Below are positions 12,357 through 31,372 of a DNA stretch of 64,000 nucleotides, piece by piece; the first letter of the stretch is position 1, and each line of letters starts with the position of its first letter. Location: the NCBI GenBank assembly GCA_038245905.1, contig JBBRRY010000017.1, positions 14,608 through 78,607 on the forward strand, given 5' to 3'. The DNA is from Thermoanaerobaculia bacterium (GTDB taxonomy: Bacteria; Acidobacteriota; Thermoanaerobaculia; UBA5066). Under the pieces are notes generated by a model. It had not been told where the DNA came from and did not search any database. It saw only the letters and a list, made by a program, of their open reading frames with translations. The position numbers and the translations under genes were made by a program.

Positions 12357-13259
12357 CTACGCTCCGGCTTTCGCGCGCAGCTCGTCGACGAGGTTGAGCC
12401 GGTGGAGGGTGCGGCCGAGGTGCGCGGCGAACGCCATCAAATGCTCGAGCTCGGGTGATTCGCCTGGTGGAGGAAGCGGTCCGCGCCGATAGAGGCGCAG
12501 CGTGCCGAGGAGCTCCTTGCCGCCGAAGACCGGAGCGGCGGTGATGGTCCAGTCCGGGGTGGCATCGCCCGGGAGGCGCGGCGCGCGCGCCGTGCGCGGA
12601 TCCTCGTCGAGGCCGAGCGTCGCGACGAAGCCGGGAGGACTTCCGCCCGGCCAGGTGCTGGAGGCGGCCGCGAGCAGGTCTACGTGGCCCGTGCGCCGCA
12701 CGTGCAGCGTGACGCCGTCGGCGCCGAACACGGACGCGATCCGGTCGAGGATCGGGACGAGGAGGCGCGCCCGGAAGTCTTCGGTCGTGACGCCGTCCTC
12801 TTCGACCTTCGCGGAGATCTCCTGCTGCAGCTCGAGAATCTGCGTGCGCGCCGTGAGGGCGTCCAGTAGCTCCTTGATGCGAAGCGCGTTCTTCACGCGC
12901 GCCTTCAGCTCGCGGGCCGAGAACGGCTTCGTGACGTAGTCGTTCGCGAGCGCTTCGAAACCCTGCAGGAGGTCTTCCTCCTCAGTGCGCGCCGTTACGA
13001 AGATGACCTGCGTGCCCGCCGTCGCGCCGACGGTCTTGATCCGGCGGCAGACCTCGTAACCGGAGAGATCGGGCATACGCACGTCGAGGAGGACGACGTC
13101 GGGCCGGCGGGCGTCCACTTTCTCGAGGGCCTCGGTGCCGGACAGCGCGCTTTCGAAGTCGCAGCCCAGCTCGTAGGCGATGTACGACGCCACCTCGGCC
13201 TGGTAAGGGTCGTCGTCCACGAGGAGGAGCAGGGGCGCGGAGGCGGGCGATCGGAACAT
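12357..13259 (-). CDS. response regulator with C-terminal GAF-like domain
   Basis: N-terminal receiver (LLVDDD, LLDVRMP, KPF); coiled linker; GAF-like C-terminus (APVFGGKELLGTLRL). Confidence 0.82.
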   Translation of the reverse strand: MFRSPASAPLLLLVDDDPYQAEVASYIAYELGCDFESALSGTEALEKVDARRPDVVLLDVRMPDLSGYEVCRRIKTVGATAGTQVIFVTARTEEEDLLQGFEALANDYVTKPFSARELKARVKNALRIKELLDALTARTQILELQQEISAKVEEDGVTTEDFRARLLVPILDRIASVFGADGVTLHVRRTGHVDLLAAASSTWPGGSPPGFVATLGLDEDPRTARAPRLPGDATPDWTITAAPVFGGKELLGTLRLYRRGPLPPPGESPELEHLMAFAAHLGRTLHRLNLVDELRAKAGA

Positions 13260-13386
13260 GGCGACCGAGGGTATAGCAGAACCAGGGAGCGATCAGGGAG
13301 CGCTTTTGCCTGGACCGACCTGCGACAGCGCGGATTCGACCCGATGCGCTAGCGAAATCCCTCGCGGTCGTCGAGAATCGCCCGTC

Positions 13387-14868
13387 GTGACTCTTCGCCT
13401 TTACAACACCATGAGCCGCTCGCTCGAGGAGTTTCGTCCCGTCTACCCGGGAAAGATCGGCCTCTACACATGCGGACCCACCGTCTACAACCGGGTGCAC
13501 ATCGGAAACCTCAGGACATTCGTCTGGGAAGACGTGATGTGCCGCGTCTTTCGCGCCCTCGGCTACGAGACGACCCAGGTGATGAACCTCACGGACATCG
13601 ACGACAAGACGATCCGGGGCGCGTTGGCCGCCGGGCTGCCGCTGCGCGCGTTCACGGACCTTCACATCGCGACGTTCTTCGAGGACCTGAAGACGCTCGG
13701 CGTCGAGCCGGCGGCGCTCTATCCGCGCGCCACGGAGCACATCCCCGAGATGGTCACGATCGTCCAGAAGCTCGCCGCCCGTGGGCACACGTACGAGAGC
13801 GACGGATCGGTCTGGTTCCGGATCTCGACGTTCCCGGGCTACGGAAGTCTCTCTAAGATCGACCTCACGGCCGTGAAGCGCGGCGCGCGCGTGGCCGACG
13901 ACGAGTACGAGAAGGAAGATGTGCGCGACTTCGCGGTATGGAAGGGAGCGAAGGAGGGCGAGCCCGAGTCCGCGACGTGGGCCACGGCGCTTGGCCGCGG
14001 GCGGCCCGGCTGGCACCTCGAGTGCAGCGCCATGGCGATGAAGTACCTCGGCGAAACGCTCGACATCCACACGGGCGCCGTCGACAACATCTTCCCGCAT
14101 CACGAGAACGAGATCGCGCAGAGCGAAGGCGCGACCGGGAAACCGTTCGTCCATTACTGGCTCCACGCCGAGCACCTCCTCGTGGACGGCGAGAAGATGT
14201 CGAAGAGCAAGGGGAACTTCTACACGCTTCCCGACCTCCTCGAGAGGGGCTTCTCTCCGCGCGCGATCCGCTACCTCCTCATCTCGGTCCCGTATCGGAT
14301 GAAGCTCAACTTCACCTTCGACGGCCTGAAGGCCGCGACCTCCGCGGTCGAGCGGCTGGAGTCGCTCGACCTGCGGCTCAGGGAAAGAGAGAAAGAGAAG
14401 AACAGTTCTTTGAAAGGGGAAGAGGGGGGGAGAGAGGGATTCGAGGGGCGACTGGCGGAGGCGCGGCGTGCGGTCTTTGCCGCCCTCGAGGACGACCTCA
14501 ACACGGCCGGCGCTCTCGGGGCGCTGTTCTCGTTCGTCAAGGCGACCAACGTCGATCTCGAGGCGGGCCATCTGTCGGCCTCCGACGCAACCGCGGCGCG
14601 CGGTCTTCTCCATGAAGTCGCCGGGAACGTCTTCGGAGTCATTGAAAAGACCGCAGGCGACGATGCGCCCTCTTCACCTTCTCAGAAATCTTCATCCGAA
14701 TCCCCCGAATCCGATGATGCGTGGATCCTGGAGCGCATCGAGGCCCGAAAGGGGGCTAGAAAGGCCCGGGATTTCAAGGCCGCCGACGCGATCCGCGACG
14801 AGCTCCTGGGCAAGGGAGTCATCCTCGAAGACACGCCCCAGGGCGTTCGCTGGAAGAGGAAGCCTTGA
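13387..14868 (+). CDS. cysS: cysteine--tRNA ligase
   Basis: LYNT, YTCGPTVY, HIGN, GRPGWHLECSAM, FPHHENEIAQS and KMSKS motifs; GTG at 13387 chosen as start. Confidence 0.96.
   Translation: MTLRLYNTMSRSLEEFRPVYPGKIGLYTCGPTVYNRVHIGNLRTFVWEDVMCRVFRALGYETTQVMNLTDIDDKTIRGALAAGLPLRAFTDLHIATFFEDLKTLGVEPAALYPRATEHIPEMVTIVQKLAARGHTYESDGSVWFRISTFPGYGSLSKIDLTAVKRGARVADDEYEKEDVRDFAVWKGAKEGEPESATWATALGRGRPGWHLECSAMAMKYLGETLDIHTGAVDNIFPHHENEIAQSEGATGKPFVHYWLHAEHLLVDGEKMSKSKGNFYTLPDLLERGFSPRAIRYLLISVPYRMKLNFTFDGLKAATSAVERLESLDLRLREREKEKNSSLKGEEGGREGFEGRLAEARRAVFAALEDDLNTAGALGALFSFVKATNVDLEAGHLSASDATAARGLLHEVAGNVFGVIEKTAGDDAPSSPSQKSSSESPESDDAWILERIEARKGARKARDFKAADAIRDELLGKGVILEDTPQGVRWKRKP
14401..14693. repeat. 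inverted pair of the dispersed motif inside cysS
   Basis: Minus copy 14401-14427 (CCCCTCTTCCCCTTTCAAAGAACTGTT) and plus copy 14668-14693 (CCCTCTTCACCTTCTCAGAAATCTTC). Confidence 0.7.
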
Positions 14869-14894
14869 CAGTGGCGCGCCACTTCGGGTCTACT
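14865..14894 (+). promoter_or_regulatory. putative sigma70 promoter of the aro-his-trp leader
   Basis: Perfect TTGACA at 14865-14870; only a weak -10 (TCTACT) at 18 bp; spacer carries the palindrome AGTGGCGCGCCACT. Confidence 0.5.
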
Positions 14895-14903
14895 TCCGGA
14901 GTC

Positions 14904-14945
14904 ATGATCTTCGTCGCGCGCCACTGGCACGTTCATCACACCTGA
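14904..14945 (+). CDS. His/Trp-rich attenuator leader peptide MIFVARHWHVHHT
   Basis: ATG ATC TTC GTC GCG CGC CAC TGG CAC GTT CAT CAC ACC TGA: 4 His, 1 Trp and 1 Phe in 13 codons, upstream of the his and trp genes. Confidence 0.85.
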   Translation: MIFVARHWHVHHT

Positions 14946-15046
14946 GTCGGCTGCGCCTCGCGCCGCCGGCCCATAGAGGTTCGGAGGCACGCGGGTTTTC
15001 CAACAAGGTCACCCCAACCCCTCCGGATCGGAGGGGTTTTCGTTTT
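14946..15046 (+). promoter_or_regulatory. transcription attenuator (alternative hairpins plus terminator)
   Basis: Terminator AACCCCTCCG-GAT-CGGAGGGGTT-TTCGTTTT (15016-15046); antiterminator arms CGGAG (14982-14986) and GGGTT (14993-14997) are complementary to 15016-15025. Confidence 0.82.
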
Positions 15047-16607
15047 GGTCCTCACCGCGGAGAAAACACTTCTCGTCGCGTCCCTCGCACCGGCTTCTAA
15101 CGCCGAGGCTCTGGGGGGGCGCGCGGCTCTCGCCGACCTGCCTCCGTCGACGGCTGTCGAGCTGCGCCTGGATGCGATGACCGAGGCGCCTGCGTTCGGC
15201 GCGCTGCGCGCGTGCTTCGAAGGCAGAACGCTCATCGCAACCGTTCGATCCAAAGCCGAGGGCGGCGGGTTCCGGGGGAGCGAGGAGGAAGAGCGGGATT
15301 TCCTAGAAGGTGCCCTCTCTGCGGGCTTCGATCTCGCAGACGTTGAATTTCGCCGCGACCTTGGTACTCGCTTCGCCGGAATACCTCCTTCTAAGAAGAT
15401 TTCTTCTCTCCACGACCCCGAAGGGGTACCAGCCGACCTCGACAGCGTCGTCTCGAGGATGCTCGCTTCCCCCTCGCGCTTCGTGAAAGTCGCGGCGACG
15501 GCAAACGATTCCGGCGACGCCCGCCGCCTTCTCGAGCTTCAGGCCGCGAACCCAGGGGGGCGCCTCACCGTATTCGGCATGGGCGAGGCCGGGATCGCCA
15601 CGCGCGTCCTCTCGCCCTATCTCGGCGCGGCGCTCGCGTACGGGGCGCTCGTCCCCGGGCGCGCCACGGCACCCGGCCAGCTTCTTGCGCGCGACCTCAA
15701 CGAGATCTACGGCGTCGGCTGCGCGCGGAGCGTCTCGCGGCTCTTCGGGATCCTGGGCGGCGTCGTCTCGCACTCCCTCTCTCCCGCTCTCCACAACGCG
15801 AATTTCGAGGCTCTCGAAGAGGACGCGCTCTACGTCCCGTTTGCGATGCGGATGCTCGGGAGGGAGCTCGAGCCCCTCGTCGCCTCCCTCGACGCGCTCG
15901 GCCTTCCTCTCGGGGGCGTCTCGGTGACGATCCCGTTCAAGGAAGAGGCCGCGCTCCTTTCGGGCGCGGCCGAGGGCGGCGAGAGGGCGGTCAACACGCT
16001 CCTGAGGTCGAGCGCCCCGGGCCTGCCGCTCCAGTGGCGCGCGGAAAACACCGACCGTGCGGCATTCGAGGCCGTGATTGAAGATGCTTCCGAGAGAGGG
16101 AGAACCGAGACGAGCGCGAATGCGCGGGTGGCGATCGTCCTCGGGGCTGGTGGTACGGCACGGGTTGCCGTGGATGTTCTCCGAAAAAGGGGATTCGGAG
16201 TCTTTCTGGTGAACCGAGGCGAGGAGCGTGGCGAGGCGCTTGCGGCTGCCACGGGCGCCCATTACCTTTCTAATAAATCCTCGGCGCCGTGGCCCGAGGC
16301 TGGAGTCATCGTCAACGCGACGGCCCTCGGGCTTCTCCCGGGGGATCCTCTTCCCTGCGAGCAAAATATTCTCCGCCCCGGGATGCTCGTGATCGACGCG
16401 CCGTATCGCGCCGGCGGAACAGAGCTCGTCCGGGCGGCGCGCGCAGCGGGCGCGCGCGTCGTAGACGGCCAGACACTGCTCCTGCTTCAGGCCGCGGGCC
16501 AGGCAACGCTCTTCACCGGGCGGCAGACGAGCCCGCGGGATCTGCTCTCGCGTCTCGCGCCGCGCCTTCGCTCCCTGTTTTCGTCCTTCGAGGAGTTTTC
16601 TCCTTGA
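15045..16607 (+). CDS. bifunctional type I 3-dehydroquinate dehydratase / shikimate dehydrogenase (AroD-AroE fusion)
   Basis: N-half has VELRLD, ATVRSKAEGG, SLHD, MGEAG and APGQ; C-half has HSLSPALHN, SVTIPFK, AVNT, NTD, LGAGGTAR and VNAT; TTG start uncertain. Confidence 0.88.
   Translation: MVLTAEKTLLVASLAPASNAEALGGRAALADLPPSTAVELRLDAMTEAPAFGALRACFEGRTLIATVRSKAEGGGFRGSEEEERDFLEGALSAGFDLADVEFRRDLGTRFAGIPPSKKISSLHDPEGVPADLDSVVSRMLASPSRFVKVAATANDSGDARRLLELQAANPGGRLTVFGMGEAGIATRVLSPYLGAALAYGALVPGRATAPGQLLARDLNEIYGVGCARSVSRLFGILGGVVSHSLSPALHNANFEALEEDALYVPFAMRMLGRELEPLVASLDALGLPLGGVSVTIPFKEEAALLSGAAEGGERAVNTLLRSSAPGLPLQWRAENTDRAAFEAVIEDASERGRTETSANARVAIVLGAGGTARVAVDVLRKRGFGVFLVNRGEERGEALAAATGAHYLSNKSSAPWPEAGVIVNATALGLLPGDPLPCEQNILRPGMLVIDAPYRAGGTELVRAARAAGARVVDGQTLLLLQAAGQATLFTGRQTSPRDLLSRLAPRLRSLFSSFEEFSP
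15295..15406. repeat. inverted pair of the dispersed motif inside the aroD domain
   Basis: Minus CACCTTCTAGGAAATCCC (15295-15312); plus CCTCCTTCTAAGAAGATTTCTTC (15384-15406). Confidence 0.65.
16258..16282 (+). repeat. copy of the dispersed motif inside the aroE domain
   Basis: CCCATTACCTTTCTAATAAATCCTC. Confidence 0.6.
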
Positions 16608-18235
16608 AGATCGAGCGGCCCGACCCGAACCTGCCGCGAGGCGTGCAGGCATTTCTCTTCGACGCGGCCGAGCGCCGCCGGAAGGCGGAAGACTCGGTCG
16701 TGCGACGGCTTCAGGAGGCCGGTCTGCGTGAGGTGATTCTCCCCGTCCTGGATTTCGCGGCCCCCTATGCCGGCGTGACGGCCGAGGGAGACGATCGCCT
16801 TTATCGGTTCCTCGACCGGCAGGGGAATACTCTGGCGCTTCGGGCGGACTTCACGCCGATGGCGGCGCGCGTCGTGGCGCCACGGCTCAGCGCGCTCTCC
16901 GGAGCCGTCTCCCTCTTCTACCGCGGAGACGTCGTGCGCGACGAGGAGACTGGTGTCGGGCGCCGGCGCGAGTTCGCGCAGGTCGGCGCAGAGCGTTACG
17001 GCGATGGCCGCCCGGAGGCCGACGGCGAAATGCTCGCGCTGGCTCTCTCCTGCCTCGGAGATCTTCCGGCCGAGCGCCTCAGGCTCACCCTCGGCTGGTC
17101 GGGCCTCCTGGAACGCCTGCTCGCCATACTCGCCCCGGGACTCGAAGTGAACGGCGCGTCCGAACTCGCCGTTGCCTTGTCGGCCGCGCGCGCGCGGCAC
17201 ATCACGGAGCTGGAGACGCGGCTTTCGACCGCGGGCGCCGCGCCGGCCGTCGCTGCGGAAGCCGCCCGGGCCCTCCTCGTCGGCTTCGACCCCTCTTCCG
17301 ATCTCTTCCACTCGACTGCCCTTGCGGGCGCGGCCGCGGAGCTCGCGCGCGCGGTCGCAATTGCGAGGGCCGCCCGGCCCGGTCTCTCGGTCGTCGTCGA
17401 CCTTGCCGACACTCCCCAGGCCCCCTATTACACGGGGCTCACGTTCAGCGTGGACGCCGCGAGCGGGGGCGGCACGATTGCCGGAGGCGGACGGTACGAC
17501 GGCCTCCTCGGGCGTTTCGGCACGGCGGCGCCCGCGCTCGGCTTCTGTATCGGCCTCGAGGCTCTCGGTGCTGCCGCCGATGTAACCGAGAGAGACGCGC
17601 GCCCTCTCCGAATCGCGGTCGGGAAGGGCCGGCTCCTGCCGCAGGCGCTCGAGGCGCTCGACGCCGGAGGCGCCTCGTTCGGCGAGCCGGACGGCCGGCG
17701 CCTTCTCGTGCTTTCCTCGGACGGCGCGTTCGAGCTGCTTCTCCTCAAGGACGACGACGTCCCGACCTACGTGGCTCACGGTGGCGCCGACCTCGGGATC
17801 GTGGGGAGCGACCGCGTCCTCGAGAGCGGCGAGGACGTGACCTCCCCCGTGGAGCTTCCGTTCGGCGCCTGCCGCCTCTCCCTCATCGGGCGGGCGGGGG
17901 AGCCGTTCCGCCCGAACGGCGCGCCCGTTCGCGTGGGAACGAAGTACCGCCGCCTCGCGGCCCGCTATTTCGATGAGCGGAAGATCGCCCATGAGATCGT
18001 CCCGCTCGCGGGTTCGGTCGAGCTCGCTGCCGCGCTCGGGCTCACGGACGTCGTCGTGGACCTCATCGAATCTGGCTCCACGATGGCCGCGAACGGTCTC
18101 GCCGAGATCGAGACCATCCTCACGAGCCGCGCGACCCTCGTCCTCGGGCGTTCCGCGCTCATCGCCCGCCGGGCCGAGATCGCGGAGTTCGTCCAGCGCC
18201 TCAGGGCTCATGCGGGCAAGGCGCTGACTTCATGA
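16604..18235 (+). CDS. hisZ-hisG: HisZ-HisG(short) fusion: ATP phosphoribosyltransferase regulatory plus catalytic subunit
   Basis: HisZ motifs LALRADFT, REFAQVGAE, YYTGLTF and GGGRYDGLLGRFG are in frame with HisG motifs RIAVGKGRL, DVPTYVAHGGADLGIVG, TKY, GSVELA and DLIESGST; TTG overlaps the aroE stop. Confidence 0.9.
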   Translation: MKIERPDPNLPRGVQAFLFDAAERRRKAEDSVVRRLQEAGLREVILPVLDFAAPYAGVTAEGDDRLYRFLDRQGNTLALRADFTPMAARVVAPRLSALSGAVSLFYRGDVVRDEETGVGRRREFAQVGAERYGDGRPEADGEMLALALSCLGDLPAERLRLTLGWSGLLERLLAILAPGLEVNGASELAVALSAARARHITELETRLSTAGAAPAVAAEAARALLVGFDPSSDLFHSTALAGAAAELARAVAIARAARPGLSVVVDLADTPQAPYYTGLTFSVDAASGGGTIAGGGRYDGLLGRFGTAAPALGFCIGLEALGAAADVTERDARPLRIAVGKGRLLPQALEALDAGGASFGEPDGRRLLVLSSDGAFELLLLKDDDVPTYVAHGGADLGIVGSDRVLESGEDVTSPVELPFGACRLSLIGRAGEPFRPNGAPVRVGTKYRRLAARYFDERKIAHEIVPLAGSVELAAALGLTDVVVDLIESGSTMAANGLAEIETILTSRATLVLGRSALIARRAEIAEFVQRLRAHAGKALTS

Positions 18236-19542
18236 TGAAGATCGTCGACGCGGATACGCTTGCGGGCAAGAAGGAGCTGGAGCGGTTGCTAAAGAGCCGC
18301 CGGGGAGCCGCTCCTGACTTCGCGACGCTGAAGCAGGTCCTGCCGATCGTGGAGGATGTTCTGCGAAGAGGGGAGCCTGCGCTCCGGAAATACGTGAAGT
18401 GCTTCGACCCGTTGCGCGGCGCCCCTTCTTACCCTTCTAAGAAGCTCTTGATCACTCCCCGACGTGAGGAGTCTTCTCGGGTGGATCCGGCGTTTCAGGC
18501 GGCGTTTGTCTTCGCCCGCAAGCGCATCGAGGCTTATCACCGCAAGCAGCTCTCGTCCGTCTCGCCGGGTTTCTCCTTCAAGGACTCTCTCGGCGTCTCC
18601 TTCGTGGAGAGGCCCACGCCGTTCGATTCGGTGGGCGTCTATGTGCCCGGGGGCCGCGCCTTCTATCCGTCCTCGCTTCTCATGGGGGTCGTGCCCGCGC
18701 GCGTCGCGGGCGTCAGGCGAGTCGTCGTCGCGACGCCGCGCGGGGCGTGGGCGTCGAGCCCCGAGCTCCGGTGGGCGGCGGCCGAGCTGGGAGTCGACGA
18801 GGTGCTCCTCGCGGGAGGGGCCCACGGTATCGCCGGCCTCGTGTCCGTCGCGGGCGTCGCGAAGATCGTCGGCCCCGGGAACCGGTTCGTCGCGGCGGCG
18901 AAGCACCTCGTCTCGGGCCTCGTGGCGGTGGACATGCCGGCAGGGCCTTCGGAAGTCGCAATCCTCGCGTCGGCCGATGCGGACCCGGCGCTCGTGGCGG
19001 CGGATCTTCTCGCGCAAGCGGAGCACGATCCCGACGCAAAGTGCTTGCTGTTTACGAGCTCGAGAAGGCTGGCGGACGCCGTTCGATGCGCGGCGCTCTC
19101 GCAGATGGATGCCTTCGAAGAGGATTCTTCTTTGATGGTGATGAGAGCGGCCTTGCGCCGCGGTGGGCGGATCTTTCTATTCAAAGAAATCTCCCGCGCC
19201 GCGTCGGCCTGCGCTGCCGTGTTCGCGGAGCACGTTCAGGTCATGGGCCGGTCTGTCGAGCGCTCGGCGGGTTCTCTCTTTCCCGCTGCCGGAACCTTGT
19301 TCATTGGCCCGTCGACGCCGACCGCGCTCGGGGACTACGTCCTCGGCCCGAATCACGTACTGCCCACAGGCGGTGCCGCGCGCAGCTTCTCGGGTCTCTC
19401 GGTGCGCGACTTCCTGCGCTGGGGGCGATCGGTCTCGGCCCCCGTGAAGGCGGCCCGCCGCCTCGCGCCCGCGGCAGCGGTCCTGGCGCGATTCGAAGGT
19501 CTCGTCGCCCACGCGAGCGCGCTCGACCGGAGAGTCCGGTGA
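18232..19542 (+). CDS. hisD: histidinol dehydrogenase
   Basis: VGVYVPGG, KIVGPGN, DMPAGPSE, DLLAQAEHD and GDYVLGPNHVLPT motifs. Confidence 0.95.
   Translation: MMKIVDADTLAGKKELERLLKSRRGAAPDFATLKQVLPIVEDVLRRGEPALRKYVKCFDPLRGAPSYPSKKLLITPRREESSRVDPAFQAAFVFARKRIEAYHRKQLSSVSPGFSFKDSLGVSFVERPTPFDSVGVYVPGGRAFYPSSLLMGVVPARVAGVRRVVVATPRGAWASSPELRWAAAELGVDEVLLAGGAHGIAGLVSVAGVAKIVGPGNRFVAAAKHLVSGLVAVDMPAGPSEVAILASADADPALVAADLLAQAEHDPDAKCLLFTSSRRLADAVRCAALSQMDAFEEDSSLMVMRAALRRGGRIFLFKEISRAASACAAVFAEHVQVMGRSVERSAGSLFPAAGTLFIGPSTPTALGDYVLGPNHVLPTGGAARSFSGLSVRDFLRWGRSVSAPVKAARRLAPAAAVLARFEGLVAHASALDRRVR
18422..18449 (+). repeat. copy of the dispersed motif inside hisD
   Basis: CCCCTTCTTACCCTTCTAAGAAGCTCTT. 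Confidence 0.7.
19120..19195. repeat. degenerate inverted pair of the dispersed motif inside hisD
   Basis: Minus CTCTCATCACCATCAAAGAAGAATCCTC (19120-19147); plus TCTTTCTATTCAAAGAAATCTCCC (19172-19195). Confidence 0.55.
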
Positions 19543-20606
19543 CCGGCCGGCCCATCCCGGTCCGCGAGGAGATCCGGTCGCTCAGGGCCTATCGCCTCGA
19601 GTCCGAGGACGCCCCCCCTCTCCGAGCGAAGCTGGACTTCAACGAGTCGCCGTTCGACGTGCCCGAGGAAATCCGCGCGGAGGTCCTCGCGCGCCTCGCG
19701 GCGAAGAGATGGGGCCGCTACCCCGAGTTCGGCGCGCCGCGTCTGAAGAGGGCGGTCGCCGAGGCGATTGGCCGGCGGCCCGAAGAGATCGTGGTCGGCA
19801 ACGGGTCTGGTGAGGTCCTTCTCGCGGCGGTCTCCGTCTTCGCGGGGGGCGGCTCTCTCGTCCTTCCGACGCCCACGTTCTCGCTCTACGGACAGATCGC
19901 GGCGATCGCGGCGGCCCGCGTCGTGGACGTGCCGCGCACGGGGCCGGATTTCGAGCTCGTCGAGGACGCATTTCTCGCCGCGGTGTCCCGGCCGCACGCC
20001 GTTCCTCTCGTCTGCTCGCCGAACAACCCGACGGGCGGCGTCGTACGGCGGGAATTCCTGGAGAGGCTGCTCACGGCCGCGCCCGTCGTGCTCCTCGATC
20101 AGGCCTACGTGGATTTCGCGGGGCCCGGCGACGACGGCCTCTCGCTCCTCGATGCCTATCCGAACCTCGTCGTCTTCCGGACGCTCTCGAAGGCGTACGC
20201 GGCCGCGGGCTTCCGGATCGGGTACGCAGTCGCGCCGCCGGAGCTCGCGCGGGAGATCGAGAAGGCCGTCCTGCCGTTCAGCGTCGACCTCGCGGCCGAG
20301 GAGTTGGCGGTCGCCGTCCTCGGGCGTCCAGAGGTTGCGCGGGCCCACCTGGGCAAGATCGTGGCCGAGAGGTTGCGCGTGGCCGCGGCGCTCACGGCGG
20401 CCGGCTGCCTCGTGGCTTCGTCGTCCGCAAATTTTCTCTTCGTGCGTCCGCCGGGCGGCCAGGCGGAGCCGGTCCGCCGGGCGCTTCTCGACAGGGGAAT
20501 CCTCGTGCGCGAAATGACCGCGGCGGCGCCCGGGCGCCTCCGTGTTTCGATCGGATCCCGTGAGGAGAACGATCTTTTCCTCGAAGCGCTTCGGGAGGTG
20601 TTATGA
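19539..20606 (+). CDS. hisC: histidinol-phosphate aminotransferase
   Basis: KLDFNESP, GNGSGE, CSPNNPTG, DQAY and RTLSKAYAAAGFRIGY motifs; GTG overlaps the hisD stop. Confidence 0.93.
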   Translation: MTGRPIPVREEIRSLRAYRLESEDAPPLRAKLDFNESPFDVPEEIRAEVLARLAAKRWGRYPEFGAPRLKRAVAEAIGRRPEEIVVGNGSGEVLLAAVSVFAGGGSLVLPTPTFSLYGQIAAIAAARVVDVPRTGPDFELVEDAFLAAVSRPHAVPLVCSPNNPTGGVVRREFLERLLTAAPVVLLDQAYVDFAGPGDDGLSLLDAYPNLVVFRTLSKAYAAAGFRIGYAVAPPELAREIEKAVLPFSVDLAAEELAVAVLGRPEVARAHLGKIVAERLRVAAALTAAGCLVASSSANFLFVRPPGGQAEPVRRALLDRGILVREMTAAAPGRLRVSIGSREENDLFLEALREVL

Positions 20607-21199
20607 GCAGGGTCGGAACAGTCGAGCGGAAGACGAAGGAGACGGACGTGTCCCTGTCGCTGACGCTCGACGGAGCGGGGCGAACGGACGTGACTACGCC
20701 CGTCGGGTTTCTCTCCCACATGCTCGAGACGATCGCGAAGCACGCGCGCGTCGATCTCACGGTCCGGGCGTCGGGCGACGTGCACATCGACGCCCACCAC
20801 ACGGTCGAGGACGTCGGCCTCGCCTTCGGCGAGGCGCTGGCTCAGGCCCTCGGGTCGCGCGCGGGAATCGAGCGCTTCGGCGAGAGCCTCGTGCCGCTCG
20901 ACGAGGCTCTCGCGCGTTCGGTCGTCGACCTCTCTGGCCGGCCGTACATCGTGTTCGAGTCTCCCATCGACAAAGAGCTCCTCCTTGTCACGAACGACTT
21001 CCCGTTCGCGCTCGTCGAAGAGTTCTGGAAGTCCGCGGCGTTTCGCGGCAAGTTCAACCTCCATGTGGACGTGATCCGCGCCCGGAACGGCCATCACGCG
21101 GCCGAGGCTGTCTTCAAGTCGGCCGCGCGCGCGCTGCGCCAGGCCATGACGATCACGGGCTCAGAGGTTCTCTCGACGAAAGGGACGCTGACGGCATGA
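20603..21199 (+). CDS. hisB: imidazoleglycerol-phosphate dehydratase (monofunctional)
   Basis: RKTKETD, HIDAHHTVEDVG, PLDEAL, NGHHAAEAVFK and STKG motifs. Confidence 0.96.
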   Translation: MSRVGTVERKTKETDVSLSLTLDGAGRTDVTTPVGFLSHMLETIAKHARVDLTVRASGDVHIDAHHTVEDVGLAFGEALAQALGSRAGIERFGESLVPLDEALARSVVDLSGRPYIVFESPIDKELLLVTNDFPFALVEEFWKSAAFRGKFNLHVDVIRARNGHHAAEAVFKSAARALRQAMTITGSEVLSTKGTLTA

Positions 21200-21825
21200 G
21201 CGAAGCCCCCGCGCCGGTGGTCACGCTCGTGGACTACGGGGTCGGTAACACGGCTTCCGTCATCCGCGCCTTCCGCCGGCTCGGCGCCGAGGTGGACTTC
21301 ACGGCCGATCTCGACCGGGTCGCGGCCGCCCGCCGCCTCGTGCTGCCCGGCGTCGCCGCGTTCGCCCCGGCGATGAACCGGCTGCTCGAGACCGGCCTCG
21401 AATCGGCCGTGCGGGCAGCCGTGAAGCGGGGAGGGCGTCTGCTCGGGCTCTGCCTGGGTTTTCAGCTTCTCTTCGAAGAAAGCGAGGAGCACGGCGTTCA
21501 CCGGGGGCTCGGCCTCGTGTCCGGCCGTATCCGGCCCTTCCCGGGCAGCGTGCGGTCGCCTCACGTGGGCTGGAACCGGCTCCTCACTCGCCGGCCGGAC
21601 GGTTTCGTCGCGGGGCTTCAGGACCGGAGCTTCGTCTACTTCGTCCATTCCTTCAGACCCGAGGGCGCCGAAGCCGCGGACGTCGCGGCGGCCTGCGACC
21701 ACGGCGGAGAGTTCCCGGCGATCGTGCAGCGCGGGAACGTCTGGGGTTGTCAGTTCCACCCGGAAAAGTCGTCGGAGAACGGCCGGCTCCTGCTCTCGAA
21801 TTTTCTCGAGGGGGATCCGGCGTGA
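21196..21825 (+). CDS. hisH: imidazole glycerol phosphate synthase, glutaminase subunit
   Basis: DYGVGN, LPGV, GLCLGFQLL, PHVGWN, YFVHS and QFHPEKS motifs. Confidence 0.95.
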   Translation: MSEAPAPVVTLVDYGVGNTASVIRAFRRLGAEVDFTADLDRVAAARRLVLPGVAAFAPAMNRLLETGLESAVRAAVKRGGRLLGLCLGFQLLFEESEEHGVHRGLGLVSGRIRPFPGSVRSPHVGWNRLLTRRPDGFVAGLQDRSFVYFVHSFRPEGAEAADVAAACDHGGEFPAIVQRGNVWGCQFHPEKSSENGRLLLSNFLEGDPA

Positions 21826-22607
21826 ACGGCGGCCGGCTTGCGCTGTGGCCCGCGATCGACCTCATGGGCGGCCGCGTGGTCCGGCTGCTCAGGGGCAAGC
21901 GCGAGGCCGTGACGTTCTACGACGAGCAGCCTTCCGAGGCCGCGAGGCGATTTGCGGCGGAAGGCGCCGACGGCATCCACGTGGTGGATCTCGATGCGGC
22001 ATTCGGAACGGGGGACAACGAAAGCAATCGGAAAGAGATTGAAGAAATACTTTCTGTTTCGGAGGCTTCCGGGGTGGCAGTGCAAGTCGGGGGAGGGCTG
22101 CGCGCCACCGCGGCCGTCGAAGATTTCTTAGAAGGGGTGAGTACCGCTAGGGCAGTTGTCGGCAGCCTGCCGTTCCTCGACCGCCCCGCGTTCACACACC
22201 TTCTAAGAAAATCTTCCTCTTCCGTCTCGGCCCGCATCGTGGTGGCCCTCGATTGCAAGGATGGCCGTCCGACCGTCCGCGGCTGGACCGAGGACGCGGG
22301 AGCGGGTGACGCCGTGTCCGTGGCACGCGAGATGTGGGGCCTCGGCGTCCGGGCGCTCCTCGTCACGGACGTCGCGTGCGACGGGGCCATGACGGGCCCG
22401 AATCTCGAACTCCTCGCCGGAGTGCGCGCCGTCTTTCCGGGCGAGATCCTGGCGTCCGGCGGCATGCGAGGAGAACGGGATCTCGATCCGGTCGACCGCA
22501 CGCTCGCGGGTGGGCCCCGCGGCGCCATCTTCGGCCGCGCATTGCACGGCGGAGTCACCACCATGGCGAAGCTCAAGGCGGCGCGCGACCTCGGGAGGCC
22601 TTCATGA
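21822..22607 (+). CDS. hisA: ProFAR isomerase
   Basis: [35 protein letters not shown] and ASGG motifs. Confidence 0.93.
22119..22217. repeat. near-perfect inverted pair of the dispersed motif inside hisA
   Basis: GAAGATTTCTTAGAAGG (22119-22135) and CCTTCTAAGAAAATCTTC (22199-22216). Confidence 0.8.
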
Positions 22608-24037
22608 CCCTCGCCGTCCGCGTCATCCCGTGTCTGGACGTCTCGGAAGGCCGCGTCGTAAAGGGCGTCTCGTTCGAAAATCTCCGCGACGCGGGAGATC
22701 CGGTCGAAGCGGCCACGCGCTACGAGGCCGAGGGGGCCGACGAGGTGGCTTTCCTCGACATCGCGGCCGCGCACGAGAAGCGAGGGACGTTCGTGGGGCT
22801 CGTGGGGCGCGTGGCCGAGGCGCTGTCTATTCCCTTCACCGTCGGCGGCGGCGTGCGTTCCGTGGAGGACGCGGACGCGCTCCTCAAGGCCGGGGCCGAC
22901 CGGGTCACGGTGAACACAGCCGCGGTCGAGGACCCTTCCCTCATCACGCGCCTCTCCGAGCGGTTCGGAGCGCAGTGCGTCGTCGTCGCAATCGACGGAA
23001 AGAGGCTGCGCGATCCGAACGGCCTCGCGGTGATGCGCGTGACGACTCACGGGGGGAGGCGGCCCGTAGACCGCACGGTCACATCCTGGGCGGCCGCGGC
23101 GGCGGCAGCAGGAGCCGGCGAGATTCTGCTCACGTCCGTCGACGCGGACGGCACCCAGGCGGGGTTCGATCTCGAAATGCTCCGCGCCGTTCGCTCCGTC
23201 GTGGATGTGCCGGTCGTGGCCTCGGGAGGCGCGGGCCGGCTCGAAGACTTCGCGAAGGCGGTTCTCATCGGGGGCGCCGACGCCGTGCTCGCGGCGTCCG
23301 TCTTCCACGACCGCGTCTTCACGATTGGCGCGGTCAAGGAGGCGATGCGGCGTGCCGGCCTCGTCGTGCGCCCCGCTCCGGCCCGCGCACGTACGCTGCT
23401 TCCCCGCTACGACGAGAACGGGCTCGTGCCCGTGATCATGCGGGACGTCGCGACCGGCAGGGTCCTCACGCTCGCGTGGGCGAACGCGGACGCGATCGCA
23501 AAGACCCGCGAGACCGGCCTCGCGCACTTCTACAGCCGGTCCCGGAAGTCCCTGTGGCGGAAGGGGGAGACGTCGGGGAACATCCAGCACGTCGCGGGAA
23601 TTTCCCTCGACTGCGACGACGATGCCGTGCTGTACGACGTGCGCCCGTCGGGTCCCGCCTGCCACACGGGAGCGGAATCGTGCTTCACGCGCGTGGAGAG
23701 CTTCGACTCCTTCGACGTCCATGGCGCAGTCGCCGACGGGCTCGACCTCACCGAACTGTTCGCCGTCGTGAGGAGCCGGAAGGAATCGCCGGTCGCCGGC
23801 TCGTATACGAGCAAGCTCTTTGACGACGGAATAGCGCGCATCGCACAGAAAGTGGGGGAGGAAGCCGTCGAGACGGCGCTCGCCTCGGTGACAGGCGACG
23901 GCAATGCGCTCGCGGGAGAGGCGGCCGATCTTCTTTATCACCTCGCGGTCCTGCTCACGGCGCGCGGCGTCGCACCGGGCGACGTCGCCGCGAAACTCGC
24001 TGAGCGCCGAGGCGCCGCGAGGCGCGAGAAGCCGTGA
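22604..24037 (+). CDS. hisF-hisIE: HisF-HisI-HisE triple fusion (IGP synthase cyclase, PR-AMP cyclohydrolase, PR-ATP pyrophosphatase)
   Basis: [15 protein letters not shown] (HisF); [22 protein letters not shown] and ACHTG (HisI); GSYT and [16 protein letters not shown] (HisE), all in one frame. Confidence 0.92.
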
Positions 24038-25410
24038 GGAATCTCCACCGCCTCGTCGTGGTCGAGAGGCCGGCGGACCTTACGACGCCCGTTGCGCTCA
24101 TGAAGGGCCTTCTTGCCGGCGAGGGGCCGTGCTTCCTTCTCGAATCGGTCGAGGGGGGCGACCGCGTGGCGCGGTGGTCCTTCCTCGGGGCGTCGCCCTC
24201 GGGAGAGATCTCCGGCCAGGATACGGATCCGTTCGCCGCCCTCCGCGCGCTGCCTCGCGGCGAAATGGCGGCAGGCGGGGACGACCTCCCTCCCTTCACG
24301 GGCGGAGCCGTCGGTTACGCGGGCTACGACGCCGTGAGGCGCCTCGAACGCCTCCCCGAAACGAACCCGGACCCGATCGGGCTGCCGGACGCGTGGTTCG
24401 GGATCTTCGACGCGGTCATCGCGTTCGACCATGTGCGGCACCGCCTTCTCTTCGTGACGCATGCCGAAGAGGGCCGGGAGGAAGAGGCGCGCGCTCGTCT
24501 GCACGCGCTCGAGGCGCGCACCCTCACCCGAGGTGGTGAAACGCGCACAGAGACTCTCTCTTCTCTTACCTTCAAAGAATCTTCTCCTCGTTCCTCCTAC
24601 ATCGCGGCGGTCGAGCGCGCGAAGGAGCACATTCGGGCGGGCGACGTGTTTCAGGTCGTCCTCTCGCGCCGCTGGTCCGCACCCTTCGACGGCGACGCCT
24701 TCGCTGTCTACCGCGCGCTCCGGTCCATCAGCCCGTCGCCGTACCAGTACTTCCTGAGGACGCCGCACGGCGCGATCTTCGGAGCCTCGCCCGAGCGACT
24801 CGTGCGCGTCGCGGCGGCCCTCGGCGGCGCGGCCGTGGAGACGATTCCTCTCGCCGGCACCCGCGCGCGCGGCGCGACGCGCGAAGAGGACCTCGCCCTC
24901 GAGAAGGAGCTCCTCGCGGACCCGAAGGAGCGCGCGGAGCACGTGATGCTCGTGGATCTCGGGAGAAACGACCTCGGCCGAGTCGCGAAGGCCGGGAGCG
25001 TGCGCGTGGAAGATTTTTTCCGCGTCGAGCGCTATTCCCACGTGATGCACATCGCCTCGCGCGTGACCGGCGTTCTCGCCGAGGGGAAGGACGCCGTCGA
25101 CGCTCTCGTGGCGACGTTTCCGGCCGGGACGCTTACGGGAGCGCCGAAAATACGCGCGATGGAGATCATCGAGGACCTCGAGCCGGTGCGGCGCGGCGCC
25201 TACGGCGGCACCGTGGGCTACCTCGACTTCGCCGGAAACCTCGACGTGGCTATCGCGATCCGCACGGCGGTCGTCGCGAACGGCATTCTCCACGTGCAGG
25301 CCGGCGCCGGCATCGTCGCCGACTCCGACCCCGAGGCCGAAGCGACCGAGTGCGAGAACAAGGCCCGTGCTCTCATGGGCGCCGTTGCGAAGGCGGGGAC
25401 GTACCGATGA
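24034..25410 (+). CDS. trpE: anthranilate synthase component I
   Basis: [45 protein letters not shown] and [10 protein letters not shown] motifs. Confidence 0.95.
24561..24586 (+). repeat. copy of the dispersed motif inside trpE
   Basis: TTCTCTTACCTTCAAAGAATCTTCTC. Confidence 0.7.
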
Positions 25411-25976
25411 TCCTCGTCGTCGACAACTACGACTCCTTCACGTACAACCTCGTCCAGATCCTCTCCATGTTCGACGGCGACGTACGCGTCGTGCGAAACG
25501 ACGCGCTCAGCGTGGACGCGATCCTCGCTGCGAAGCCGGACCGGCTCGTCGTGTCTCCGGGGCCGGGCCGGCCGGAAGACGCGGGAGTCTCGTGCGAGCT
25601 GATCCGCCGGAACGAGCGGATCCCTCTCTTAGGAGTCTGCCTCGGGCATCAGGCCCTCGGGGCCGTCTTCGGCGGAACGGTCTCCCGCGCGCCGGTCCTC
25701 ATGCACGGCAAGACTTCGGAAATCTCGCACGAGGGAGCGGGCCTTTTCGCGGGGCTCCCGAGCCCGTTCACGGCCACGCGGTACCACTCCCTCGTCGTGG
25801 AGCGGGACTCGGTTCCCGCGGCGCTCCGGATCACCGCCACGACCGATGACGGGCTCGTGATGGGCCTCGCCCATCGGACCCGCCCTCTCGTCGGCGTGCA
25901 GTTCCATCCCGAGTCGATCCTGACGAAAGAGGGGGAGCGGCTCCTGAAGAACTTCGTGGACGGGCGGCTCGCGTGA
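25407..25976 (+). CDS. trpG: anthranilate synthase component II (glutamine amidotransferase)
   Basis: DNYDSFTYNL, SPGPG, GVCLGHQ, RYHSL and GVQFHPES motifs. Confidence 0.95.
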   Translation: MILVVDNYDSFTYNLVQILSMFDGDVRVVRNDALSVDAILAAKPDRLVVSPGPGRPEDAGVSCELIRRNERIPLLGVCLGHQALGAVFGGTVSRAPVLMHGKTSEISHEGAGLFAGLPSPFTATRYHSLVVERDSVPAALRITATTDDGLVMGLAHRTRPLVGVQFHPESILTKEGERLLKNFVDGRLA

Positions 25977-27013
25977 CGACGGCCGCCCATCGCGCGCTCT
26001 GGACGGTGGCGCGTGGCGCGCATCTGACCCGCGCGGAAGCGCGGGCAGCCGTGACGGCGCTTCTCGACGAGGACATCCCCGGGACGATCGTGGCCGGCCT
26101 CCTCGCGGCGCTGGCGGCCCGGGGCGAGACGATCGAGGTCGTGGCGGGCGCCGTGGATGTCCTCCGGGCGCGGGCGGCGCGGCCTCCCGTGGACGCGGCA
26201 CTGGCCGCCCGCTCCATCGACGTCTGCGGAACCGGGGGCGACGGGTTCGGCACCTTCAATGTCTCGACGGCCGCCGCGTTCGTGGTCGCGGGCGCAGGGA
26301 CGCCCGTCGCCAAACACGGGAACCGTGCCGTCTCCTCGGCATGCGGCTCGGCCGACGTCCTCGCAGCGCTTGGTGTCGAAATCGAGATGTCTCCCGTCCG
26401 GGCCGCCGAGGCGCTCGCGCGCGCGAACGTCACTTTCTTCTTCGCGCCGCTCTATCACCCCTCGATGAAGAAGGTAGGCCCGATCCGGCGCGAGCTGGGA
26501 GTCCGCACGGTATTCAACCTCGCCGGACCCCTTTCGAATCCGCTCGGCGTGACGCGGCAGATCGTGGGGGTGGATCATCCCGAGCGGGTGCCCGTGATCG
26601 CGGGAGCCCTCGCGGAGCTCAACACCGAGCGCGCGCTGGTGTTCTCGCACGAGACCGGCGGCGACGAGCTGCTGCCCTTCGGGCGCACGTTCGCGGCAGA
26701 CGTGCGCGGGACCCATGTCGAGCTTCTCGAGCTCTCTGCCCCGGATTTCGGCCTCGAGGAGGGCGAGGGGGCCGATCCCTTGAAGGGCGGGGACGCCCAC
26801 ACGAACGCGGAGATCCTGCGCGCGATCCTGGGAGGCTTCCGGCGCGACGCGCGGGACGTCGTCCTGATGAACGCTGCAGCTGCGCTCGTCGTCTCGGGAC
26901 TGGCCGCTGATTACCGGGAAGGCGTCACGCGGGCGGAACACGCCATCGACGAGGGGAGTGCCCGGGAGGCGCTCGATGCGCTCGTGAGAATCTCGAACGG
27001 GGTCCCGTCCTAA
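25973..27013 (+). CDS. trpD: anthranilate phosphoribosyltransferase
   Basis: DVCGTGGDG..TFNVST, KHGNRAVSS.CGSADVL and RTVFNLAGPL motifs. Confidence 0.95.
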   Translation: MTTAAHRALWTVARGAHLTRAEARAAVTALLDEDIPGTIVAGLLAALAARGETIEVVAGAVDVLRARAARPPVDAALAARSIDVCGTGGDGFGTFNVSTAAAFVVAGAGTPVAKHGNRAVSSACGSADVLAALGVEIEMSPVRAAEALARANVTFFFAPLYHPSMKKVGPIRRELGVRTVFNLAGPLSNPLGVTRQIVGVDHPERVPVIAGALAELNTERALVFSHETGGDELLPFGRTFAADVRGTHVELLELSAPDFGLEEGEGADPLKGGDAHTNAEILRAILGGFRRDARDVVLMNAAAALVVSGLAADYREGVTRAEHAIDEGSAREALDALVRISNGVPS

Positions 27014-27028
27014 GAGGAGTAAGAGGGA

Positions 27029-27271
27029 GAGAAATTTCTTAGAAAGGGTAAGAGGAAGAGGGGATGGGCGGATCGATTCTTGGGGAGATTCTCGCCGCCA
27101 AGCGGCGCCGGATCGCCCGTGGGGAGTTCACGGCCGAGACGGGCGCGCGCGCACGCACCAGCGGGGGTAGGGGCGCGCAGCCCGCGGCGCGGCCCGACGG
27201 CGCGCGCTTCGCCGCGGCCCTTAGGTCTCACCCTTCTCTTTCTTCCTCCTCCATTTCTAAGCAAGTCTTTC
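27029..27271. repeat. inverted pair of the dispersed motif: trpD-trpC intergenic plus trpC 5' region
   Basis: Minus CCTCTTACCCTTTCTAAGAAATTTCTC (27029-27055); plus CCTCCTCCATTTCTAAGCAAGTCTTTC (27245-27271). Confidence 0.7.
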
Positions 27272-31369: not shown

Positions 31370-31372
31370 GCT
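31344..31372 (+). promoter_or_regulatory. sigma70 promoter upstream of the rodZ-like gene
   Basis: TTGACA (31344-31349), 17 bp, TAGGCT (31367-31372). Confidence 0.7.

Follow-up and report, generated by a model that had tools for sequence, protein, structure and literature searches.

The subject of this analysis is a short regulatory leader in the genome of a Thermoanaerobaculia bacterium (assembly GCA_038245905.1, contig JBBRRY010000017.1), located at positions 14904-15046 of a 64,000-nucleotide (nt) stretch of DNA that we call the window. Our reading is that the leader is a ribosome-mediated leader-peptide attenuator, which would sense both His-tRNA and Trp-tRNA and would control the fused aro-his-trp operon that follows it; we put the probability of this reading at roughly 0.8. 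The original prediction, made from the letters of the window, had proposed a joint His/Trp attenuator at this site, and comparison with related genomes supports that interpretation. The genes downstream of the element, in the order aroDE-hisZG-D-C-B-H-A-F/IE-trpE-G-D-CF-B-A, make up one operon of about 15.6 kb. The 176-nt gap between the upstream neighbour cysS and the first gene of the operon holds a putative promoter, the leader open reading frame (ORF), a series of GC-rich complementary segments and a terminator-like hairpin. Features described below lie on the forward strand unless another strand is given.

The leader ORF, MIFVARHWHVHHT, runs through 13 codons at 14904-14945, from an ATG at 14904 to a TGA at 14943-14945, and has the interleaved His and Trp codons that had been claimed for it. 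These are CAC at 14922, TGG at 14925, CAC at 14928, CAT at 14934 and CAC at 14937 (His7, Trp8, His9, His11 and His12), which means that five of six consecutive codons specify His or Trp and that the leader contains four His codons and one Trp codon overall. The codon pattern CAYTGGCAYNNNCAYCAY (His-Trp-His-x-His-His) has a single match in the 64-kb window and none in 100 dinucleotide shuffles; in the 3.8-Mb genome it also matches once, as does the reversed control pattern. The leader's only Phe codon, which had been mentioned along with them, is not conserved in relatives, where the peptides read MTSAS.. or MSSTS..; it is not a control codon.

Downstream of the leader ORF, a set of segments can pair in alternative ways. 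Segment B (14946-14956), the 5' arm of the B:C helix, directly adjoins the stop codon, so that a ribosome sitting on that codon masks it. Segment C (14960-14972) can pair either with B, through 14960-14970, or with D, through 14962-14972. Segment D (14978-14988) can in turn pair with C to form an anti-antiterminator or, through 14979-14987, with E to form an antiterminator. Segment E (15016-15028) consists of the 5' arm of the terminator (15016-15025) and the loop, and its bases 15020-15028 are those that pair with D in the read-through state. Finally, segment F (15029-15046) comprises the 3' arm of the terminator (15029-15038) and then the U-tract TTTTCGTTTT (15037-15046), which follows the terminator stem with eight U residues in 10 nt.

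The helices B:C (14946-14970), C:D (14962-14988) and the E:F terminator were found where they had been placed by eye. B:C, pairing 14946-14956 with 14960-14970, is worth -16.4 kcal/mol as a hairpin, and the extended C:D helix, 14962-14972 with 14978-14988, is worth -13.4 kcal/mol and is the predicted fold when a stop-codon ribosome masks B. The terminator pairs 15016-15025 with 15029-15038 in 10 base pairs, seven of them G-C, around a GAT loop (-17.3 kcal/mol). For D:E, the core CGGAGG:CCUCCG was correctly identified, but the proposed bounds (14982-14997 with 15016-15025) had to be moved to 14979-14987 with 15020-15028, where nine pairs give a duplex of -14.2 kcal/mol. Terminator-like sites are more frequent around the leader than in shuffled sequence (four between 14500 and 15500, as against 1.0 +/- 0.9 in the shuffles), and the terminator features are conserved in both lineages of leaders described below. 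None of the Rfam leader families includes the element, which forms a lineage of its own; a scan of 13000-17000 at E<=10 returned seven weak, unrelated matches and none to a His or Trp leader family.

The placement of the ORF relative to these segments fits a switch operated by a ribosome. Segment B starts 9 nt past the first base of the last His codon in the window's family and 12 nt past it in the sister lineage, and because of this 9-12 nt spacing a stalled ribosome leaves B free while a stop-codon ribosome covers it. When the window's RNA was folded from 14938 onward, as if a ribosome had stalled at the Trp codon, and with F absent, the minimum-energy structure was B:C plus D:E. When it was folded from 14956 onward, as with a ribosome on the stop codon, C:D formed before E was made, and the full leader gave C:D plus E:F. 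Only 3 nt come between E and F. GGAGG (15030-15034), within the terminator's 3' arm, is likely, from its spacing to the TTG at 15045, to be the Shine-Dalgarno sequence of aroDE. With the aroDE start inside the U-tract, a promoter would have no space downstream of the terminator, and transcription of the operon must therefore pass through it.

How would such a leader work? From the promoter TTGACA-18-TCTACT, transcription would begin on the leader ATG or no more than a few bases away, and a ribosome would translate the 13-codon leader. During a shortage of His or Trp, the ribosome would stall at 14922-14939 (on His7, Trp8, His9, His11 or His12) and leave B free, so that B:C could form and D would remain free to capture E in the 9-bp D:E helix as E emerges; the terminator would then come too late, the polymerase would read through, and GGAGG in F would be open for translation of aroDE. 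With both charged tRNAs plentiful, the ribosome would instead reach the stop codon and cover B, C:D and then E:F would form, and transcription would end in the U-tract at 15040-15048; any RNA that did read through would have its Shine-Dalgarno sequence and start codon sequestered. Either shortage alone would suffice, and the leader would thus behave as an OR gate. We infer where transcription starts, that ribosomes stall, that the helices compete kinetically and that the leader responds to His and Trp, and likewise the OR-gate behaviour and its rationale, namely that the two pathways share phosphoribosyl pyrophosphate.

The six-segment architecture of the his type also includes a pairing of the leader coding region (A) with B, which brings about super-attenuation when the leader is not translated. 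Short complementary stretches for such a pairing can be drawn here by eye, and the fold of the RNA with no ribosome pairs the coding region differently. As a separate observation, RNAalifold on an alignment of sister-family leaders from loci that include his genes (A6) pairs columns 51-61 with 126-135, which brings the N-terminal leader codons together with D and encloses B:C. This pairing may represent an A-type segment that forms when the leader is not translated, or it may be an artefact of GC-rich sequence.

The putative promoter of the leader was read from the sequence as a -35 hexamer, TTGACA (14865-14870), which is conserved in relatives, and a -10 hexamer, TCTACT (14889-14894), separated by an 18-nt spacer, with the leader ATG 9 nt further on. 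The counterparts of the -10 hexamer in relatives, at the same place, read TCCAAT, TTCAAT, CAGTAT, TAACGT or TAGGCT. Among 88 distinct leaders, 80 have TTGAC upstream, and in 78 of these 80 the start codon (ATG in 73 of the 80, GTG in seven) lies 36-40 nt downstream, with a mode of 39. The implied position of the start codon in relatives is 6-10 nt past the -10 hexamer, and there is no conserved Shine-Dalgarno sequence; one lineage that lacks TTGAC has TGATATCNT, then 7 nt and ATG. Because the start codon is held at a nearly constant distance from TTGAC and no Shine-Dalgarno sequence is conserved, the leader mRNA is probably leaderless or nearly so. A strict sigma-70 scan called no promoter at this site.

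The promoter region has two further features. The stop codon of cysS (TGA, 14866-14868) falls within the -35 hexamer. In addition, a palindrome in the promoter spacer, GTGGCGCGCCAC (14871-14882), can pair with leader codons 4-7 (14915-14925), and this pairing would bury the leader start in transcripts that read through from cysS; relatives do not share the spacer sequence. A fold of the whole region showed a long helix that joins 14870-14882 to the leader codons, but this was dropped as a feature of the main transcript because its upstream partner sits in the promoter spacer and is not conserved.

Conserved ORFs rich in His and Trp had been expected upstream of orthologous operons, and they are found there in nearly every locus. 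Within the genus, the leader is present in 23 of 24 loci, the 24th being truncated by a contig end, and it takes the form of a 12- or 13-codon ORF ending ..RHWH[VSA]HH[STGNI], with the minor variants RRWHVHH and RHWHSH. Within these ORFs, His codons change synonymously between CAT and CAC, one relative lacks a His codon through an in-frame 3-nt deletion, and the stop alternates between TGA and TAA at a fixed place, while the N-terminal residues and the spacer between D and E vary freely. Beyond the genus, all 15 genomes from eight other genera of the family have cysS-leader-aroDE-hisZG-hisD. Their leader cores read RHWH[VS]HH, RHWHGHH, LWHWHH, WHWHWHH or RPWHGHH, always with at least one Trp and at least three His codons and in some genera with two or three Trp codons; the peptides include MLARHWHGHHT, MTFAPVLWHWHHT, MRRFQVRWHWHHG, MFLTSWHWHWHHG and MANVAQLSWHWHHG. 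A covariance model of the leader (R1) matched 15 of 15 genomes of the family in a sample of 151 genomes from the class. The sole match outside the family, L165, lies in a coding region without a leader and was rejected.

A chain of alternative helices like that of the his attenuator, the architecture originally proposed, is present across the family, and both C:D and D:E show compensatory changes. The test for C:D used an alignment of 42 family sequences (A5), gathered by a model search at E<=1e-4, that was model-based and fitted only to B:C and E:F; it was preferred to a MAFFT alignment across genera (A2), in which the hairpins were out of register. B:C, to which A5 had been fitted, pairs in 92.5-93.9% of cases in the 42 sequences, with compensatory changes. 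C:D, to which it had not been fitted, pairs in 89.4% of cells, as against 82.3 +/- 1.0 in shuffles (none of 500 reached the observed value) and 11-67% with slid partners. Compensatory changes occur at two of the seven C:D pairs, one changing from CG to UA in nine sequences and the other from CG to GC or AU in 10. One column of segment C (A5 column 73) covaries both with B column 38 (GC in 33 sequences, AU in seven) and with D column 92 (CG in 33, UA in nine), a double covariation of the kind expected of a segment shared between two helices.

D:E was tested as duplexes, since a 1-nt register shift between genera bars column-wise counting on A5. Most of the 27 distinct D/E combinations form 8-11 contiguous pairs, for example GUCCGGAGG:CCUCCGGAC in the window's genus and UCGUCCGAGGG:CCCUCGGACGA in another, and a doubly compensated pair is found in L134 (GGCUCGGAGGG:CCCUCCCAGCC). 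The mean duplex energy is -16.4 kcal/mol for cognate D and E but -14.6 kcal/mol for non-cognate combinations, and none of 20000 permutations reached the cognate value. A wider test on 26 sequence clusters gave -20.0 versus -18.1 (p=2e-4), a difference that shared base composition within a genome could inflate slightly.

Equilibrium folding was carried out on 81 leaders, 46 of the His+Trp type and 35 of the Trp-only type described below. These remained from 88 after seven without a called terminator were left out, here and in the 26-cluster test of D:E (L081, L084, L086, L098, L099, L115 and L133; the L081 locus ends inside the terminator). Once the leader is complete and a ribosome occupies the stop codon, the terminator forms in 46/46 His+Trp and 35/35 Trp-only leaders. 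In the stalled state with F absent, D:E forms in 39 of the 46 and in 33 of the 35, respectively.

The comparison that bears most directly on what the leader senses is that between its codons and the genes it precedes. Two sister families have cysS-leader-aroDE-trpEGD(CF)BA, with no his genes, in 12 of 13 fetched loci (the 13th is cut), and their leaders are Trp-only: ..NWWWREATR, ..WCWREGNR or ..WWRLEKRR, sometimes with a single Trp (L102, L114 and L077 are examples). The full set consisted of 81 rows, namely 80 species-level loci and the window, and both traits could be read in 65 of them. The 16 rows omitted were five whose upstream DNA is cut by a contig end (L050, L091, L103, L119, L123), four in which the next gene is off the contig (L069, L072, L108, L122), four that have divergent or partial AroDE homologues and yielded no leader (L094, L109, L116, L124) and the three rows excluded from the tree described below (L067, L080, L118). 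All 29 leaders with at least two His and at least one Trp in the last 12 residues are followed by aroDE and then hisZG, and all 36 leaders with fewer than two His (Trp-only) are followed by aroDE and then trpE; none of the 65 is discordant. Metagenome contigs that carry the sister-family scaffold motif gave the same result. They yielded 80 loci, of which 26 combine aroDE-trpE with a Trp-only leader and 11 combine aroDE-hisZG with a His+Trp leader; none of the 37 readable loci is discordant, and the remainder are too short or are chance matches (L203, L206, L216, L237). Every mixed leader has at least one Trp codon, in sets of 29, 18 and 11 loci.

The loci were placed on a maximum-likelihood tree of AroDE (77 rows, quick search; L067, L080 and L118 were dropped because their AroDE fragments are short or interrupted). 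The tree has at least three changes of operon state, also when only the starred branches are considered, and the leader follows all three independent contrasts. The loci of the window's family all have his genes in the operon (his-in). A second, small his-in clade, with the leader ..HHWHHEV[ND]R, is nested among the Trp-only lineages, and in the three of its genomes that could be measured trpE lies 7.4-9 kb downstream of aroDE.

Inside this nested clade is one locus, L077, that has the order aroDE-trpE. In its genome (G033), which is 97% complete in two contigs, neither hisD nor the hisZG fusion found a match, while G055 and G051, which belong to the same GTDB genus, have the his block and leaders with HHWHH or HRWHH. 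An alignment of the L077 leader RNA with those of its his-in kin matches them base by base, and where the kin have CAT CAC TGG CAT CAC, L077 has AAT GGA TGG CGT AAC. The change from HHWHH to NGWRN thus kept the Trp codon and lost all four His codons.

The reverse arrangement, a his operon on its own, occurs as well. In G081 and G083, both from another genus, the homologous attenuator scaffold is present twice per genome (L258 = G081:C115 and L146 = G083:C163; L256 and L257): one has the Trp-only leader ..WWRLEKRR before aroDE-trpEGDCFBA, and the other has a His-only leader, ..LARHPHHHEVNG, with four His codons and no Trp, before hisZG-hisD-hisC. Three metagenome loci (L196, L212, L236) have a His-only leader, ..AHHGHHQ[EG]NR, directly before hisZG. 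At these loci the Trp codon of the HHWHH form reads GGG (Gly) and a short remnant that resembles the start of aroDE follows the terminator; the contigs are too short to show genes beyond his. A pattern search for the His-only HHGHH leader found none in 175 genomes of the order. The rule that a leader encodes the amino acids whose genes follow it holds in three configurations, which a functional sensor predicts and a relic or a chance ORF does not.

A further his-in locus stands apart from those above. G123 carries it on an 8.1-kb contig (L104/L144, G123:C29), and the other sampled genomes of its genus lack hisD (found in one of nine). In an unsupported polytomy, the AroDE of this locus is placed next to a his-in clade that belongs to another genus; the clade with the leader type seen in the congener G035 is far away.

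The distribution of his genes in the order was followed through the hisD family PF00815. It is found in 52 of 57 genomes of the window's family, in six of 56 of one sister family, one of the six being below the Pfam cut-off, and in one of seven of the other, where the lone match is a weak fragment (G030). The positive controls of this search were recovered in 14 of 14 cases, and several near-complete genomes (97-99%, 1-4 contigs) are without a match. Protein searches with hisZG and hisD in five Trp-only genomes found no orthologue, the two weak hisZG matches being probably HisS, and the Pfam search with its 14/14 controls agrees. Many bacteria of this order may be histidine auxotrophs, and the his block looks like a cassette that has been gained or lost.

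Several observations weigh against the reading of this leader as a joint His/Trp attenuator. The window's genus has only one Trp codon in the leader, and sensitivity to Trp is a prediction. Of the 42 sequences in A5, 25 carry a C.U mismatch within the core of C:D. With a ribosome on the stop codon and F absent, D:E is still the minimum-energy pairing in 21 of the 46 His+Trp leaders, and stalling leaves part of D engaged in pairs with upstream sequence (0.54 versus 0.74 for mixed leaders, 0.43 versus 0.76 for Trp-only leaders). Equilibrium folding alone does not cleanly separate the stalled state from the stop-codon state. With the ribosome's footprint masked, as had been suggested for a check, the folds of the window's own leader match the model; across the 81 leaders the two states differ only modestly. 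Considering that equilibrium folds fail to separate the states, and that C:D is needed before E is made, the decision of the switch must be kinetic, and the classical trp and his attenuators likewise rest on a kinetic decision. The comparison across loci has its own limits. All of the genomes compared are metagenome-assembled genomes. The filter used to find leaders required Trp in the peptide tail, and His-only leaders could be missed by it; they were later found by other means. The G123 contig represents either a transfer of the whole leader and operon or mis-binning. There are only three phylogenetically independent contrasts, which puts significance out of reach (sign test p=0.25). Finally, in the predicted ilvB attenuator of the actinobacterium Streptomyces, the control codons proved dispensable on mutation (PMC1262725).

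Perhaps only one amino acid is effectively sensed, with His dominating and the single Trp codon surviving as a relic of a Trp-only ancestor. In the window's genus there is indeed one Trp codon to four His codons, the mixed leader of the second lineage shares its tail and scaffold with the Trp-only type, and in theory (PMC1183508) sensitivity grows with the number of regulatory codons. The Trp codon is, however, present in every mixed leader and is doubled or tripled in some genera of the family. When the his genes leave, as in L077, it is the Trp codon that is kept and the His codons that are lost; when a his operon stands alone, the Trp codon is absent (G081, G083) or has become Gly (L196, L212, L236). 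Moreover, one Trp codon is all that some of the Trp-only relatives have (L102, L114, L077). This pattern of retention suggests that one codon is enough for selection to keep, and we consider sensing of a single amino acid unlikely. A mainly translational control, in which E:F would chiefly hide the Shine-Dalgarno sequence and start of aroDE and have no role in termination, would account for the position of GGAGG (15030-15034) in the 3' arm of the hairpin and of the TTG start in the U-tract, and mycobacterial attenuators in which a leaderless short ORF (sORF) acts on a ribosome-binding site are documented (bioRxiv 10.1101/834739). Against it, the hairpin has all the features of an intrinsic terminator (10 bp, GC-rich, a triloop and eight U in 10 nt), conserved across lineages, and we consider mainly translational control unlikely. 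The termination and translational layers are compatible, and both probably operate.

Must the ORF be a sensor at all? A protein or small molecule might regulate the leader RNA while the ORF is translated to no regulatory effect. The dispensable codons of S. coelicolor ilvB (PMC1262725) would be a precedent, and equilibrium folds discriminate poorly between the ribosome states. The leader has no match to an Rfam riboswitch or protein-binding family, and on loss of the his genes in L077 nonsynonymous swaps hit exactly the four His codons and left the rest of the RNA unchanged; such regulation seems to us very improbable. It is harder still to credit that the hairpin is a plain terminator of cysS and the short ORF a chance or non-regulatory sequence. 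The hairpin is, to be sure, the first terminator-like site after cysS, some 150 nt away. Yet the start of aroDE in its U-tract means that the operon is transcribed through it, with no room for a promoter at 15039-15045; conservation extends to the ORF with its frame and its His and Trp codons but not to the neighbouring spacers, which vary; the composition of the leader tracks the content of the operon; and the codon pattern is unique in the genome.

The operon itself is compact. Its first gene, an aroD-aroE fusion (dehydroquinase I plus shikimate dehydrogenase, 15045-16607), was identified, like the other genes of the operon, by Pfam domains. In support of an aroDE start at TTG 15045, within the U-tract, L131 has an ATG at the corresponding place, and the N-terminal alignment of relatives agrees. 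It is followed by a hisZ-hisG fusion (16604-18235; tRNA-synt_His plus HisG), whose TTG start overlaps the aroDE stop (TTGA), then by hisD (18232-19542), hisC (to 20606, start approximate), hisB (20603-21199), hisH (21196-21825), hisA (to 22607, start approximate) and a hisF-hisI-hisE fusion (to 24037, hisF start approximate). The trp genes complete the series: trpE (24034-25410), trpG (to 25976), trpD (25973-27013), a trpC-trpF fusion (27064-28575), trpB (28565-29788) and trpA (29785-30603). Most of these genes overlap by 4 nt, and terminator-like sites within the operon are not above chance (eight found, 10.4 +/- 3.9 in shuffles). Four gene fusions thus occur in one operon (aroD-aroE, hisZ-hisG, hisF-hisI-hisE and trpC-trpF, within 15045-28575); at the sister-family loci trpC and trpF match in different frames and are probably separate genes.

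At the distal end, a 254-codon ORF (30605-31369, plus strand) has a GTG start 1 nt past the trpA stop and no Pfam match (best E 0.088), and it may be the last, uncharacterised gene of the operon. A TTGACA-17 nt-TAGGCT sequence at 31344-31372 (plus strand), with the stop of this ORF inside its -10 hexamer, has the same shape as the leader promoters of the sister families and lies just 5' of a RodZ-like gene (31393-32220; HTH_25 plus RodZ_C). On the other side of the leader is cysS, encoding cysteinyl-tRNA synthetase (13258-14868; Pfam tRNA-synt_1e, 1.7e-102), which is also the upstream neighbour in most relatives, and divergent to it a response regulator with receiver and GAF domains (12357-13259, minus strand).

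In the enterobacterial his attenuator, hisL, B:C and D:E form for read-through and C:D and E:F for termination. The leader described here resembles hisL in that its peptide contains His control codons, its helices form an alternating chain and an intrinsic terminator precedes the first gene. It differs in that hisL has seven His codons in a row, whereas here four interleaved His codons are combined with one Trp codon; in addition, the leader is probably leaderless, the operon also carries aro and trp genes, and the host is an acidobacterium. As in trpL of Escherichia coli, Trp codons in a short leader ORF would choose between antiterminator and terminator, here ahead of an operon that includes trpE. 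Unlike in trpL, the Trp codon shares its leader with His, the RNA is built of six segments, and the switch is separated by 9 kb from trpE downstream; closer analogues of trpL are the Trp-only relatives, with their WWW and WCW leaders before aroDE-trpE. His leaders also occur in some Firmicutes (PMC9413887, PMC2965389).

Leaders with control codons for more than one amino acid have precedents of their own, and it was thus only partly correct that this element has no described equivalent: no His+Trp leader was found in our literature search, but multi-amino-acid leaders were already known, and the idea is not unprecedented. Examples are thr (Thr and Ile) and ilv (Ile, Leu and Val). The Phe-Tyr-Phe leader of Corynebacterium glutamicum aroR is another, for which only Phe is reported as effective (PMC11802643). 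The present leader is like thr, ilv and aroR in placing control codons for more than one amino acid in one peptide, and it is unlike them in that each of those serves one branched pathway, whereas here two separate pathways are joined by a his block inserted in an aro-trp operon. A comparable gene assembly is the aro supraoperon of Bacillus subtilis, aroFBH-trpEDCFBA-hisC-tyrA-aroE, which is controlled by the TRAP protein. That operon likewise unites aromatic, Trp and His-related genes in one transcription unit, but it contains only hisC, whereas here the whole his pathway is inserted and a leader peptide takes the place of TRAP.

For the leaderless arrangement, the nearest parallel is the mycobacterial poly-Cys sORF, on which stalled ribosomes remodel RNA that hides the next ribosome-binding site (bioRxiv 10.1101/834739). 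Both have a sensory sORF at or near the 5' end of the mRNA, a start that is deduced in the present case; the mycobacterial system is translational and reads Cys, while the leader described here also has a canonical terminator. Elf and Ehrenberg modelled mixed control regions and explained why few codons suffice for a rare amino acid (PMC1183508); the ratio of four His to one Trp fits that model. Naville and Gautheret noted that hardly any of the attenuators predicted in Acidobacteria has an assigned function (PMC2965389). Our literature search, in which coverage of subscription journals and supplements was incomplete, found no mixed His/Trp leader and no attenuation in Thermoanaerobaculia.

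Leader-peptide attenuation is a textbook mechanism, yet to our knowledge nearly all described cases come from Proteobacteria, Actinobacteria and a small number of Firmicutes, and the multi-amino-acid attenuators that we know of sense the products of one branched pathway. We think it fairly probable, though well short of assured, that the scaffold described here is a codon-programmable sensor that has been rewritten repeatedly within one acidobacterial order, in Trp-only, His+Trp and His-only forms, with at least three transitions and with genomes that have two copies. On this proposal the mixed form would be a two-input OR gate that links two otherwise separate pathways, leaderless, with a hairpin that is both terminator and sequestor of the Shine-Dalgarno sequence and start codon, and the first leader-peptide attenuator system described in Acidobacteriota.

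The finding matters in several ways. The codon content of a sensor is seen here changing with the genes of its operon, His codons decaying by single-base changes after loss of the his genes, and it shows how regulation is re-wired when operons fuse. The relatives are natural codon-swap mutants with which the number of control codons needed for each amino acid could be tested, and with the mixed leaders one could examine how a single kinetic switch combines two inputs, which has been modelled (PMC1183508). Attenuation would also be extended to an uncultured phylum of soil and sediment. For the organisms themselves, the distribution of the his block suggests that histidine prototrophy is patchy in this order, which bears on their cultivation.

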